A DNA stretch of 64,000 bases. It comes from an uncultured Candidatus Saccharibacteria bacterium. Lineage in GTDB: Bacteria > Patescibacteriota > Minisyncoccia > Phycocordibacterales > UBA918. Positions 24,832 through 42,044 of this stretch are shown piece by piece; within the stretch, counting starts at the first letter, position 1; each line of letters starts with the position of its first letter. The DNA lies in the NCBI GenBank assembly GCA_964638425.1, contig CAZWYM010000003.1, positions 16,289 through 80,288 on the forward strand. The letters are read 5' to 3'. Made by a program: the position numbers and the translations under genes. The notes beneath the pieces are model-generated. The model did not search any database. It saw only the letters and a list, made by a program, of their open reading frames with translations, and had not been told where the DNA came from.

Positions 24832-25233
24832 ATGGAAACGAAACAATACGTAGAAGGCATTGGACGACGAAAGACAGCGACAGCGCGTGTTCGTATCACA
24901 AAGGCGAAAGAATCTCGCGTCATCGTGAACGACCAGCCAATCGCTGAGTATTTCTACGCATCAACTCTTCAGAAAAATATTATTTCAGTACTCGAAACAG
25001 AAAACGCAGGTATTGAGCACTACGAGGTAAGTGCAAAGGTACAAGGAGGTGGACTCAGTTCACAATCAGATGCAATCAAACTCGGTATTGCACGAGCACT
25101 TGTGAAGGAGAAGGCAGATCGACGTATTCCTCTCAAACGAGCAGGATACCTCAAGCGAGATCCACGTGCAGTGGAACGAAAGAAGTTCGGTCTCAAAAAA
25201 GCACGACGCCGCCCACAATGGTCAAAGCGCTAG
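24832..25233 (+). CDS. rpsI: 30S ribosomal protein S9
   Basis: Full-length S9 similarity with the K/R-rich C-terminus. Confidence 0.95.
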   Translation: METKQYVEGIGRRKTATARVRITKAKESRVIVNDQPIAEYFYASTLQKNIISVLETENAGIEHYEVSAKVQGGGLSSQSDAIKLGIARALVKEKADRRIPLKRAGYLKRDPRAVERKKFGLKKARRRPQWSKR

Positions 25234-25235
25234 TA

Positions 25236-25263
25236 AAAAGGCTCCACTACGGAGCCTTTTTTC
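25236..25263 (+). terminator. rho-independent terminator after rpsI
   Basis: AAAAAGGCTCC-actac-GGAGCCTTTTTT. Confidence 0.6.
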
Positions 25264-25266
25264 GCG

Positions 25267-25309
25267 CTTTGAAGTCGGAGACATGTTTCTGCTATTCATA
25301 ATGCAGAAA
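25267..25309 (+). repeat. repeat unit copy 1: 20-nt box CTTTGAAGTCGGAGACATGT plus hairpin with loop TATTCATAAT
   Basis: The box is at 25267-25286. The hairpin TTTCTGC-TATTCATAAT-GCAGAAA is at 25286-25309. Confidence 0.5.
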
Positions 25310-25399
25310 CGGTCGAGACGAGGTCGAAGAGTGCTTAATGTAATCAAGACAAAGTCTCTGATTGCATTTAGCAACTCGTGACCAAACGATAATTTTAAG

Positions 25400-25426
25400 A
25401 AAAGAGCCCCCTTCGGGCTCTTTTCT
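25400..25426 (+). terminator. second rho-independent terminator
   Basis: GAGCCC-cctt-cGGGCTCTTTTCTT. Confidence 0.5.
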
Positions 25427-25431
25427 TATCT

Positions 25432-25527
25432 CTTTGAAGTCGGAGACATGTGGCCAGAAAATAAGGAGCGCGAGCAACTATATTCTCTGAGCCTGTCTTA
25501 AAATCCTATTCATAATGGATTTTAAGA
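25432..25527 (+). repeat. repeat unit copy 2: identical 20-nt box plus hairpin with different stem but identical loop TATTCATAAT
   Basis: The box is at 25432-25451. The hairpin TCTTAAAATCC-TATTCATAAT-GGATTTTAAGA is at 25496-25527. Confidence 0.5.
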
Positions 25528-25548
25528 CGAAAGCTATTCAAAACAAAA

Positions 25549-25580
25549 ACAAACCCCCTGCAAACTTCGCAGAGGGTTTT
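25549..25580. terminator. bidirectional terminator-like hairpin flanked by A-tract and T-tract
   Basis: The sequence AAACAAACCCCCTGCAAACTTCGCAGAGGGTTTTAT. It lies downstream of minus-strand gene 25584..26102. Confidence 0.4.
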
Positions 25581-25583
25581 ATA

Positions 25584-26102
25584 TTACTTCTCAAACAGAT
25601 CTTTTTGACCACTTTTTCCACGACGCACAGTATCAAGATACGCCAACACATCTACCAACTTAAAGTGCTCCGAAACCTTAATGAAGGTAATCGGAATTGA
25701 TTGAAGGTTTTTGTGCATGAGTCGCACGACAACTACATACCGCACTCCGGCCAAGGTTTCATACGGCAATTTCCGAGCAACAGACTCAACGGTCGATATG
25801 TCTTTTGGGTCGGCTTCCTGGGTACCAGCGGTTACAAAACGCACAGCATGATCAAAAATTTTCCAATTTCTAAAATCAGAACCTTTAGGATGTACTGTAC
25901 CAACCACTCTGCCTCCAAACCCAATAAAGAAACCGTAACTATCATAGGGATGTTCTACTCCATGAATAAGTCCACATTGCGTTTCTTGTACATTATCAGG
26001 CCCAAGCTCCAACATCTGCACTGAAGTTGCTTTTGGCATCAATGGGTGCAAATCTTTGACCCATGGATACTCTCTAAATAGTGCTTCAACTTTCGCAGTC
26101 AT
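25584..26102 (-). CDS. hypothetical protein with conserved Cys/His motifs (QCGLIHG…HPYD)
   Basis: A 172 aa ORF with no confident family assignment. It is divergent from grpE. Confidence 0.4.
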   Translation of the reverse strand: MTAKVEALFREYPWVKDLHPLMPKATSVQMLELGPDNVQETQCGLIHGVEHPYDSYGFFIGFGGRVVGTVHPKGSDFRNWKIFDHAVRFVTAGTQEADPKDISTVESVARKLPYETLAGVRYVVVVRLMHKNLQSIPITFIKVSEHFKLVDVLAYLDTVRRGKSGQKDLFEK

Positions 26103-26248: not shown

Positions 26249-26277
26249 TTGACAGACACTAAAAGTGGCTGTATAAT
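26249..26277 (+). promoter_or_regulatory. consensus sigma70 promoter TTGACA-N17-TATAAT for grpE-dnaK-dnaJ
   Basis: The -35 TTGACA is at 26249-26254. A 17-nt spacer separates it from the -10 TATAAT at 26272-26277. The grpE ATG is 9 nt downstream of the -10. Confidence 0.6.
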
Positions 26278-28862: not shown

Positions 28863-29933
28863 ATGAAAAACTACTACGAAATTCTCGGCATTGAAAAAAA
28901 TGCGACAAAAGATGAGGTGAAAAAGGCTTTTCGTAAGTTAGCATCTAAGTACCACCCAGACAAAAAGACGGGTGATGAAGAAAAGTTCAAGGAAATCAGT
29001 GAAGCATACTCAACGCTCAGTGATGACAAGAAGCGTGCAGAATACGACACCTATGGTCGTTCATACGCAGGAGGAGGACAGCAGCAGAATGCGCAGTGGG
29101 GAGGCTTCCAAGGTGGTTTTGGAGGAGCTGGCGTTGAGTTCGACATCAATGACATCTTCGAAAACTTCGGAGACATTTTCGGTGGAGGAGGACGCGGAGG
29201 AAATCAGCGAAACGCTCGTGGTAACGACATCTCAGTCGACATCGAACTCACCTTCAAAGAGTCTATCTTTGGAACAAAGCGTTCGCTTCGCCTCATGAAG
29301 AACAATACCTGTAGTACCTGTAAGGGTTCAGGTGCAAAGGCGCAATCAGAGATGATTACCTGTACAACGTGTAACGGTAACGGGAAAATCCGCGAGACAC
29401 GCCAGAGTATCCTTGGGCAATTTGCTACCGTACGAGAATGTTCTGTATGTAGTGGTACAGGCAAGGTACCTAAGGAGAAGTGTGCAGATTGTAACGGAGT
29501 AGGTATAAAGCGAACCGAAGAAACTATCGACATCCAAGTTCCAGCAGGAATTGAACCAGGTGAAATGATACGCATGACTGGACGAGGTGAGGGTATCAAG
29601 GGAGGTACTCCGGGCGACCTCTACATCAAGGTTCATGTACAGCGACATGCAACCATTCAACGAAACGATAGTACTCTCGGAAGTACACTACGCGTAAAGC
29701 TCTCTGACGCACTTCTTGGAGGCACATACGGAGTCGAGACACTCGATGGTATCGTCAACATTAAAATCCCTGAAGGAGTGAAGCATGGAGAAATCTTACG
29801 CATTAAAGGGAAGGGTGTGCCGGTAGGCTCATCTCGTGGAGATTTCCATGTCACTATCTCAATCGACATTCCACAGAAGCTTTCTAAGACAGCCCGCAAA
29901 CTCGTAGAGGAGCTTCGCGGAGAAGGTATCTAA
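28863..29933 (+). CDS. dnaJ: chaperone DnaJ
   Basis: A J-domain ([31 protein letters not shown]), a G/F-rich region and four CxxCxGxG zinc-finger repeats. Confidence 0.95.
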
Positions 29934-29975
29934 ACGAAAATAAAACACGCCTTCGTGTGTTTTTACGTTTAGATA

Positions 29976-30111
29976 AGCCGGAATGATGCTTTGACTACCC
30001 CTAATGTCAAAGCGAATGAGGCAGGACAGGAGATTCTTAGTAAGCGTAGCGAACTTAGAAATCTGCGTTCAAGCGAGTAAAACCCCCATGACTACGTCAT
30101 GGGGGTTTTCT
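29976..30111 (+). ncRNA. candidate small RNA / structured leader ending in strong terminator
   Basis: A ~135 nt non-coding stretch between dnaJ and the next gene. It contains the hairpin CTTTGAC-N10-GTCAAAG and ends in the terminator CCCCCATGAC-tacg-TCATGGGGGTTTTC at 30081-30111. No known RNA family motif was recognised. Confidence 0.2.
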
Positions 30112-41139: not shown

Positions 41140-41600
41140 TTCTACACCCCTTTCAAGGATAAAAGATTTAAAAGAACAAAATATATTCGAAGAATTTTTT
41201 GTTGAAATATAATCAACAAAAAAACTCCTCGTCACTGCACATGTTTAATAAACATGTAAAGGGACGAGGAGTTTTATCAACTCACGTGGTACCACCCTCT
41301 TTAGAATTTACATTTCAAAATAAATTCACTTATTGACTCATACACATACCACATTAAGGTATGCAGACATCAATTATCCCATGATTACGGAGGATGCCGG
41401 ACTTTCACTAACGCAGTAGTCACCCTTCTTCACTTGGAAGAAAATTGTGGCCCAATCTCGTACAATTTCAAATTGACGAGACCACAATATGGGTTTTCAG
41501 TGCTCAGAACGAACTACAATAACTAAATTTGATAGTACCGTAGAAAAACACTCCATGCAAATGCTGGTTAACTGAAGCGGATTTTTGTTATAATCACATA

Positions 41601-42044
41601 ATGCAATACAGCAATAATATTCAAATTGTTCTTGATATTCTCAAAAACGAAGTTGATGGGGATATTTCTAGTGCACTTGAGAAAATGACTTCAGACTACT
41701 CAATGACGTGGATGTATCAAAAAGGGGAGTCGTTTTTCCCTGTGGTAAAAAGTGACATGCCTAAGAAACTCGAAGACGTGTATCCCATACAGGGGAGAAA
41801 GTATGACATTCGAAACATTACCGAAGGGAATGATGTCGTTATGATTGAGGTTATTGAAAGCTATCCTGACCCAGAGACGGGGAAACTGTACAAAACTCCG
41901 CAAGTCATAGTCCTTGAAATGGAAGAGGGGAAGATTAAAACAGGAAGACACTACTGTGACCCTCGACTCTCACACGCCAATCTTTCAGACGAACAGATAA
42001 ATTCCGCACTCAATGACACTGATACAAAGGTAGAAATAAAGTAG
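41601..42044 (+). CDS. hypothetical protein, NTF2/SnoaL-like fold suspected
   Basis: A 147 aa acidic protein. Its size and alternating pattern fit an NTF2-like fold. The match is weak. Confidence 0.3.
   Translation: MQYSNNIQIVLDILKNEVDGDISSALEKMTSDYSMTWMYQKGESFFPVVKSDMPKKLEDVYPIQGRKYDIRNITEGNDVVMIEVIESYPDPETGKLYKTPQVIVLEMEEGKIKTGRHYCDPRLSHANLSDEQINSALNDTDTKVEIK

Follow-up and report, generated by a model that had tools for sequence, protein, structure and literature searches.

The 64,000-nucleotide (nt) stretch of DNA from an uncultured Candidatus Saccharibacteria bacterium analyzed here, which we call the window, carries two tandem copies of a non-coding element behind the ribosomal protein gene rpsI and a third copy behind dnaJ. 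They belong to a family of unannotated, widespread elements of about 200 nt from Patescibacteria (the Candidate Phyla Radiation, CPR), of which more than 130 copies were found in total. The units share a defined anatomy and a covarying two-domain fold and carry a leader antisense to the end of the gene upstream, which in part of them recurs behind the unit as a direct repeat; turnover between strains and truncation are also seen. The rpsI locus is an entry point to this family with its unusual anatomy. Our favoured reading, held with moderate confidence, is that the units are miniature, protein-less, non-coding integrative cassettes of Patescibacteria/Paceibacteria that bring along a replacement end for the gene they enter.

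Between rpsI (24832-25233, plus strand, Pfam Ribosomal_S9) and a convergent open reading frame (ORF) of 172 amino acids (aa; 25584-26102, minus strand), which is followed by grpE-dnaK-dnaJ, an earlier note on this DNA had described two tandem modules with an identical 20-nt box and hairpins with a common 10-nt loop on different stems, and this description stands. The box CTTTGAAGTCGGAGACATGT is found exactly at 25267-25286 and 25432-25451, and no other site was seen in the window with three mismatches allowed (0.02 expected). The loop TATTCATAAT is found exactly at 25293-25302 and 25507-25516, each time as the loop of a hairpin; with one mismatch this 10-mer occurs 10 times in the window against 6.5 expected and is not over-represented, so only its location inside both hairpin loops is notable. 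Both stems are 100% complementary as described, with lengths of 8 base pairs (bp; 25285-25292 with 25303-25310) and 12 bp (25495-25506 with 25517-25528) rather than 7 and 11 bp. Three terminator-like hairpins lie at 25235-25261 (T1), 25396-25428 (T2) and 25551-25579 (T3), with the G+C-rich stem-loop and U-tract of intrinsic terminators; T1 is a perfect 11-bp stem followed by TTTTTT overlapping the 3' arm, and the terminator scan picked up T2 and T3. Read directly, T3 has a U.G pair on the minus strand and a C-A mismatch at that place on the plus strand, and therefore primarily serves the convergent ORF. The identical region is present in two other assemblies.

In the rpsI-downstream spacers of the two closest relatives (L003 and L004) sequence blocks such as GCGA-loop-TCGC, GTGCTTA and TTAGCAAC..GACCAAAGCG are kept, and the hairpins at the same position have entirely different stems. 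Eighty species-level genomes were collected via S9, many of which have one to three units after rpsI, always on the rpsI strand. A seed of 14 units, aligned with MAFFT and not fitted to any model, gave a two-domain consensus with RNAalifold in which 85% of the pair cells are paired; sliding the 3' partners lowers this share to 34-44%. Double changes are seen at 23 pairs. Covariance models (CMs) R1 and R2, built from units and searched against the loci, gave 30 units there, and pairing over 26 units was 87.7%. One scan with a 24-nt core pattern returned 80 metagenome contigs, in which the CM search found 109 units. Over 126 units 91.3% of the pair cells are paired (32-39% when slid), 34 of the 37 pairs covary, and none of 500 shuffles reached the observed value. 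Because the larger sets are model-fitted and pattern-selected, the unfitted 14-unit seed is the cleanest control.

The search of related genomes for more copies and the covariance model built from them had both been proposed in the earlier note; the model matches the window with 106 and 82 bits, and the possibility raised there that no further copies exist has decisively failed. The null explanation, that the locus holds nothing specific but ordinary intrinsic terminators, a recent local tandem duplication and chance likeness, could draw on T1 and T2 with their boxes being 73% identical over 52 nt, but it is refuted by the more than 130 homologous, covarying copies in unrelated contigs and contexts, and we give it practically no weight.

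In the consensus, Domain I follows the leader with P2a (GNC:GNC), an internal loop GGA/GA, P2b (GCG:CGC), AUGU/AAC, the variable hairpin P3 (12-122 nt) and then GG. Domain II is made up of P1 (GGUC-G-CAAG:CUUG-GACC), a bulged A, P5 with a U.U mismatch inside CUUAG/CUUAG, P6, often with a C(GNA)G tip, and a tail. The hairpins that had drawn attention to the locus are thus P3 of a massively covarying family, in keeping with the earlier view that a conserved loop on unrelated but perfect stems marks a structured nucleic acid. As a family signature the loop fares less well: UAUUCNUAAU is present in 11 of 126 P3 loops (about 10%, by a loose motif search), and related pyrimidine-rich loops recognized by eye bring the share to about a quarter, so that the motif is a sub-family trait. 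Mismatches within the helices favour the strand of the upstream gene (GA+AG 39 vs CT+TC 13; GU 33 vs AC 23). A large extra domain between Domains I and II (…GCAAGAGGUUGUC–hairpin–AUACAACCUGAACAGCUYCUGUAAGRAG…) is seen at L010 4137-4330 and L016 4432-4620 and is kept in both genomes.

None of the 4227 models of Rfam 15 matched in the window, and at E<=10 the segment 25100-25700 gave hairpin/terminator noise only; there was no match in 14 related loci or the L012 array, and 18 metagenome loci gave tRNAs only. A literature search found no published description of this family, and two family patterns had no match in viral contigs. The family is absent from Rfam, and its covariation is among the clearest signals that can be obtained from sequence alone.

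The box is not an autonomous recognition element. Its 5' half is locus-specific: it is antisense to the sequence just ahead of the preceding hairpin, namely the final codons of rpsI with the stop (TCAAAGCGC/GCGCTTTGA), and it differs from locus to locus, while its 3' half (GTC-GGA-GAC-ATGT) is the 5' strand of P2 and pairs with GTC-GA-GAC at 25312-25319. Across genomes the leader tracks the Ser codon of rpsI (TCA/TGA, TCT/AGA, TCG/CGA, TCC/GGA and AGT/ACT). The leader (J') and the gene end that it matches (J) are the two strands of a long hairpin, P0, which is formed in nearly all of 29 loci, with a leader complement of median 10 bp and maximum 28. Leaders linked to tRNA genes are antisense to the tRNA 3' end, one class matching the last 2-5 nt plus the trailer and the other matching 17-23 contiguous nt made up of the T-loop, the T-stem 3' strand and the acceptor 3' strand. 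They track individual tRNAs, as when the atypical T-loop TGCAATT is mirrored by GGAATTGCA, and the mean inverted match is 10.2 nt for tRNAs with a unit compared with 6.8 nt for those without. A closing helix between the unit's own 5' and 3' ends was considered and rejected; the leader pairs with the upstream gene end instead.

The region enclosed by J and J' holds one or two hairpins that are usually terminator-like. At some loci (the ftsZ loci and L141) the P0 hairpin has no U-tract, so termination is not the defining role of P0; at the ftsZ loci the hairpin is built from the last codons themselves. Mismatches in P0 are of G.U type in 24 cases and of A.C type in 13, which is suggestive only as to pairing at the RNA or the DNA level. 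A second small conserved hairpin with the loop CUGC/UUGA (e.g. GCAAACUGCUUUGC or GCGACUGCCUUGAGGCAGUCGC) occurs inside P0, after the first hairpin and ahead of the leader, in L135, L145, L154, L167, L090, L111, L164 and others, and splits the antisense leader in two at some loci.

The box also contains an ATG preceded at 2 nt by GGAG, and a 26-32 aa ORF is open in the window. The modules could on these grounds be thought to encode, or to be leaders of, the K/R-rich micro-ORF at 25301-25384 or a longer ORF from the box ATG, the former having been entertained in the earlier note. However, among 26 units the frame opened by the box ATG varies in length between 1 and 39 aa, and 4 units have none, the spacing between Shine-Dalgarno (SD) sequence and ATG is too short, helix substitutions are compensatory and not codon-wise, and there is no Pfam match, which together leave a coding role next to no credibility. 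A type I toxin or small-protein gene is likewise rejected (ORF length 0-39 aa, no Pfam match).

Module 1 is a full member of the family: the CM matches 25265-25394 with 106 bits (E=4e-25), and the minimum free energy (MFE) structure of the single sequence reproduces the consensus (z=-9.2). Module 2 scores only 9.7 bits (E=2). Its approximately 125 nt are homologous to the 5' part of unit 2 of L139, an expanded-P3 unit on a 1.03-Mb metagenome contig, with the box, a hairpin GGCCAGAAAATAA...TTCTGAG, a hairpin with the loop TATTCA(A/T)AAT and an A-rich stretch in common. Beyond the homology L139 unit 2 goes on with CGCGAGGCGGGG and Domain II, whereas the window enters the terminator of the convergent ORF; module 2 stops just ahead of the expected CGCGAG (P2b'), and the P2 3' strands and Domain II are absent. 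Module 2 is therefore a 3'-truncated unit, of an expanded-P3 variant whose 5' part is retained. The loop motif has a third near-copy, GCTATTCAAAA, at 25533-25543 in the A-rich tail 3' of hairpin 2, which aligns with ACAATGCAAAA in L139 unit 2. Independent truncations or identity breaks directly after the box are seen at L008 4440-4460, L208 1960-1985 and 25451/25452 of the window (…CGGAAC / …GGAGACATGT), a hint that P3 begins at a point prone to recombination.

The copy behind dnaJ (29966-30081) was matched with 57 bits and then with 82 bits (E=6e-19) in CM searches, and its leader CGTTTAGATA at 29966-29975 is a 10/10 complement of the dnaJ stop region TATCTAAACG. A dnaJ-linked copy is likewise seen in L003 (966-1076, minus strand). 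A weak CM match at 41565-41693 (14 bits) is by eye a promoter and gene start and not a family member.

The earlier note had also thought of two paralogous small RNAs (sRNAs), and paralogy does hold; equivalent sRNA genes they are not, module 2 being truncated. Two independently transcribed, trans-acting sRNAs, each running from a separate promoter close to its box as far as the next terminator, would be in line with the terminator-like hairpins that flank the units and with the very stable fold of unit 1. However, a simple sigma-70 consensus scan of the plus strand from rpsI to grpE found no promoter-like site for the units, while grpE itself has a perfect TTGACA-17-TATAAT; what lies upstream of Domain I is locus-specific antisense and no conserved promoter, and module 2 is without half of the fold. 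We consider this explanation improbable. The grpE promoter is located at 26249-26277 (plus strand), and its block TTTTTGACA...CTGTATAATG is kept in the relatives L009 and L013-L017, showing that standard promoters are recognizable in this lineage. A promoter in the box and loop (TTGAAG ... TATTCA/CATAAT) is rejected for its wrong spacing, the unconserved motif and the negative scan, and a minus-strand sRNA with an anti-SD seed is rejected on the mismatch statistics and the strict co-orientation of the units with the upstream gene.

This co-orientation is evident from the genomic context. Of the 109 units from metagenomes, 53 lie at most 130 nt behind a tRNA gene on their own strand, with 14 or more isoacceptor types represented, and an upstream tRNA gene on the opposite strand was never seen; 13 follow another unit, and 7 directly precede another same-strand tRNA gene. 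The other upstream genes are rpsI (S9), rplB (L2), ftsZ (four loci), the end of topA encoding a Zn-ribbon and a GIY-YIG gene, in addition to dnaJ in the window. Up to three copies were found per 8-64 kb stretch examined. Parsed by hand, tRNA-Ile/Lys genes of L139, L141, L124 and others seem to begin with C1, paired to G72, and to have no encoded CCA.

A subset of the units shows signs of insertion in the form of a second gene end downstream. A direct repeat of the gene end of at least 8 nt is found after Domain II in 22 of 96 units, compared with about 3% of non-cognate pairs, and the live gene end is intact in every such case. The repeat in L123 is 24 nt long, from C56 of the T-loop through the trailer; others measure 20 nt (L105 and L163), 16 nt (L160, L159 and L157) and 14 nt (ftsZ in L121). 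At the ftsZ locus L097 both copies encode VPAFLRRSKLK-stop with 8 of 11 sense codons differing, all synonymously; in L121 6 of 11 differ, again all synonymously, and in L114 the second copy is decayed. The duplication at topA (L108) extends over 24 codons; its start, about 75 nt ahead of the stop codon, is where the leader pairs. Every tail linked to rpsI, that at 25378-25393 of the window among them, is a degenerate or frameshifted rpsI end resembling TGG-AGT/TCN-AAR-CGN-TAA, and its Ser codon is often of the family not used by the live end. Second copies that differ synonymously or in Ser codon family must have been functional ends until recently, or in another genome.

Turnover between strains is seen as well. 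L210 and L211 agree fully in S9 and in unit 1, but their second units are unrelated. The pseudo-rpsI end, hairpin, leader and unit 2 of L210 are homologous to the live rpsI end, T1 and unit 1 of the window, and a newer unit with its own rpsI end and terminator has thus been placed between rpsI and the older unit in L210. In L008 and L208 nothing but hairpin, leader and box is left, as solo remnants, and G+C contents within one array can be as different as 0.58 and 0.37.

In the integrative-cassette reading, an element would consist, from 5' to 3', of a copy of the last 10-75 nt of the target gene (J and the remainder R), one or two hairpins T, the leader J', Domain I and Domain II; since J' is the reverse complement of J, the part J-R-T-J' folds into P0. 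Elements would insert into conserved, highly expressed genes (tRNA genes, rpsI, dnaJ, ftsZ, rplB or topA) at the 3' end, where the element-borne gene end would turn live and the resident end would be pushed 3' of Domain II and decay there, and repeated insertion would produce tandem arrays with the newest unit nearest the gene. Unit 1 of the window, joined to the live end of rpsI, would then extend over 25220-25393. Unit 2 (25378 to about 25550) would be the older one, its 3' half lost at the place now taken by the convergent orphan ORF with its terminator, and a third element would be located on dnaJ. The simplest formal description would be Campbell-type recombination at J of a small J-R-T-J'-Domain I-Domain II element. 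We infer such a Campbell-like integration at J, in which the J:J' duplex, as a double-stranded replica of the target, presumably specifies the site; Domains I and II may be recognized by, or catalyze, a mobility or processing machinery, and transcripts of the gene upstream that read through probably express the units. With a bias to the sense strand and co-transcription likely, RNA is somewhat favoured over single-stranded DNA (ssDNA) as the active form.

Several points weigh against this reading. No recombinase, reverse transcriptase or any other ORF was associated with the units in the loci examined, and neither a free form (circular or linear) nor a pair of empty and filled sites was seen. 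A clear second gene end is present in only about 23% of the units, and decay must be assumed for the others. Copies within one genome are old and divergent, the two full copies of the window being of different subtypes (long vs short Domain II), and the same rpsI site is occupied across genera, which also fits a vertically inherited functional RNA. Pair conservation of 91% among copies that are old suggests that every locus is still under selection, as would not be expected of dead insertions. The choice of the metagenome sample with a core-derived pattern and the model fitting of the larger alignments inflate conservation in that core segment. Finally, the target diversity is too great for one classical site-specific integrase.

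In the most serious alternative the units are RNAs that act in cis to the benefit of the host and are inherited vertically, as part of the 3' trailer of transcripts from tRNA and housekeeping genes; the leader would clamp the upstream RNA 3' end into P0, for instance as an RNase III-type processing or stabilizing site, Domains I and II would bind protein, and tandems would arise by local duplication only. Strong covariation, the bias of G.A and G.U mismatches to the sense strand, the excess of G.U-type mismatches in P0, strict co-orientation with the upstream gene and the occupation of the rpsI site in many genera all agree with such an RNA, as do the P0 hairpins lacking a U-tract and the units inside tRNA operons, both of which make co-transcription likely. 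It leaves unexplained the second ends with synonymous-only changes (ftsZ) or with another Ser codon family, the differing second units behind identical S9 and unit 1, the displacement in L210 relative to the window and the mixed G+C content inside one array; moreover, an antisense stretch of 21-23 nt against T-arm and acceptor strand would undo the fold of the very tRNA that is served. On balance we regard this explanation, with mobility denied, as rather unlikely, but a host role of a trailer RNA is compatible with mobility, and the two could coexist.

Going beyond the cassette reading, the units could be a new class of protein-less mobile element with the target set by base complementarity, in which J' (10-40 nt) and the element-borne gene end form a duplex replica of the site, and a two-domain core of RNA or folded ssDNA brings about integration into tRNA genes and essential genes at their 3' ends, either by recruiting an enzyme in trans or by its own catalysis: a guide-programmed, scar-free cassette in CPR bacteria. 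We put this forward tentatively, as a possibility with the balance against it. CPR genomes are tiny and have little non-coding DNA, and they nonetheless maintain these elements of about 200 nt behind tRNA genes, rpsI, dnaJ, ftsZ, rplB and topA. If mobile, the elements show how a 200-nt parasite can enter essential genes harmlessly by bringing a replacement end, and the antisense leader would mean target choice by base pairing, which is in principle reprogrammable. If they are host RNAs, they would represent a previously unknown 3'-end or trailer function on about half of the tRNA genes sampled. Either way, the current annotation of these genomes misses them.

With integrative elements at gene 3' ends (prophages, genomic islands and cis-mobilizable elements, CIMEs) the units have in common the targeting of tRNA and conserved-gene 3' ends, the replacement gene end, tandem integration and flanking direct repeats of the gene end, which start in the T-loop in several tRNA cases. 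The direct repeats (attL/attR) and restored gene end typical of tRNA-targeting elements are found here as repeats of 14-24 nt and as the duplicated ftsZ and topA ends. In contrast to such elements, the units are only about 200 nt, have an inverted target copy J' beside the replacement end and a folded two-domain core, and use more than 14 tRNA types and at least five protein genes as targets. They bear no integrase gene of the tyrosine-integrase type and no conserved ORF, and no integrase was noted among the ORFs examined in the loci, a search that was not exhaustive. Integron attC sites and CTXphi attP(+) resemble the units in conserving structure over sequence, in a hairpin that is a duplex copy of the target site, in cassette-like tandem arrays that vary between strains and in an integrated form that keeps the inverted copy by the junction. 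The units differ from these in lacking GTTRRRY/RYYYAAC core boxes (no paired RYYYAAC ... GTTRRRY motif was seen by inspection of the P0 sequences), integron integrase, attI and dif, in a duplex that is different for each target and in an ssDNA form that is putative.

Among ribozymes, the R2 retrotransposon 5' ribozyme, the group I intron internal guide and 3'-replacement trans-splicing ribozymes may be compared with the units as we model them, co-transcribed with the host gene and with a 5' part pairing with upstream host sequence, and the layout of antisense guide, structured core and replacement 3' sequence is that of a 3'-replacement ribozyme. Unlike these, the units have no Rfam match to hepatitis delta virus (HDV)-like ribozymes, group I or group II, no identified pseudoknot or G-binding site and no reverse transcriptase, and many of the second gene ends are decayed and hence not obligatory exons. 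A group I or group II (IIC) intron is contradicted by the lack of an Intron_gpI, Intron_gpII or group-II-D1D4 match, by the size of about 130 nt and by gene ends that are duplicated and not interrupted. The loci scanned with Rfam gave no match to self-cleaving ribozymes (HDV-like, hatchet, hammerhead, twister and pistol). None of the defining features of the attC/CTXphi, guide-core-exon ribozyme and R2 ribozyme families is present.

Like Correia/CREE, ERIC, BOX and REP/BIME sequences, the units are short, non-coding, multi-copy, modular and sometimes tandem, follow gene ends and form RNA hairpins; unlike them, they have no terminal inverted repeats, their copies are deeply diverged yet keep the fold, the antisense leader is target-specific and the gene end is duplicated. 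The L17 downstream element, said to have been reported by Weinberg and co-workers in 2010 as an orphan structured RNA 3' of a ribosomal protein gene, is likewise a conserved structure immediately 3' of such a gene, but differs in sequence and structure (no Rfam match), and the units are mainly tRNA-linked and show insertion signatures. TIGR (tandem interspaced guide RNA) arrays have 36-nt units with box C/D motifs and two spacers of about 9 nt and adjoin a Nop-domain Tas gene (PMC12045711); compared with that description our units are too long (about 130-230 nt) and have no adjacent Tas gene. A miniature inverted-repeat transposable element (MITE) is rejected on account of the inverted repeat J vs J' at one side only and direct repeats varying from 7 to more than 24 nt. 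5S rRNA came to mind from the size, the tRNA linkage and a GAAGUGAA-like loop, but the units are multi-copy and have no match to RF00001, with which CPR 5S rRNA genes are reported to be detectable (PMC9297842). Likenesses to K-turn, Y RNA, signal recognition particle RNA, hammerhead, HDV, group II domain V and bridge RNA do not fit the consensus and have no Rfam support. The features of the window are collected in Table 1.

Table 1 Features of the rpsI and dnaJ loci in the window.
Feature	Position	Strand	Basis
Live rpsI 3' end GGTCAAAGCGCTAG (W-S-K-R-stop)	25220-25233	+	ORF 24832-25233, Ribosomal_S9
J, 5' strand of the long helix P0	25222-25230	+	Inverted repeat 25222-25237 with 25257-25272; MFE pairs TCAAAGCGC with GCGCTTTGA
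T1, tip of P0, 11-bp stem AAAAAGGCTCC/GGAGCCTTTTT	25235-25261	+	Homologous to the L210 hairpin behind the displaced pseudo-rpsI end
Leader J', reverse complement of the rpsI end, P0 3' strand	25262-25273	+	Overlaps 5' half of box 25267-25286
Domain I, unit 1	25274-25319	+	RNAalifold, pair counts, single-sequence MFE
P2a, unit 1	25274-76 with 25317-19	+	Internal loop GGA/GA
P2b, unit 1	25280-82 with 25312-14	+	
P3, unit 1 (hairpin 1 of the earlier note)	25285-25310, loop 25293-25302	+	
Domain II, unit 1: long irregular hairpin with P1, bulged G, bulged A, P5 with U.U mismatch, P6 with AAA tip	25322-25383	+	
Degenerate second rpsI 3' end TGACCAAACGATAA, overlapping the end of Domain II, read as displaced older gene end	25378-25393	+	Tail resemblance; L210
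T2, 14-bp stem, tip of unit 2 P0	25396-25428	+	Inverted repeat and terminator scan
Unit 2, truncated: leader and second box 25432-25451, hairpin A 25452-25493, hairpin B 25495-25528 (loop 25507-25516), A-rich tail	25429-25550	+	
T3 of the convergent 172-aa ORF, abutting the unit 2 truncation point	25551-25579	-	Terminator scan
dnaJ 3' end TATCTAAACG (J) and terminator-like hairpin, P0 of the third copy	29927-29965	+	Like arrangement in L003
Third family copy, short Domain II subtype, P3 loop TACCCCTAAT	29966-30081	+	CM; terminator at about 30080-30109 follows

The convergent 172-aa ORF is without a Pfam domain and has only three clusters in a collection of 5.8 billion proteins, namely itself and two relatives with 61% and 58% identity. 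All three are located between the rpsI array and grpE, and in the window the terminator of the ORF coincides with the truncation point of unit 2.

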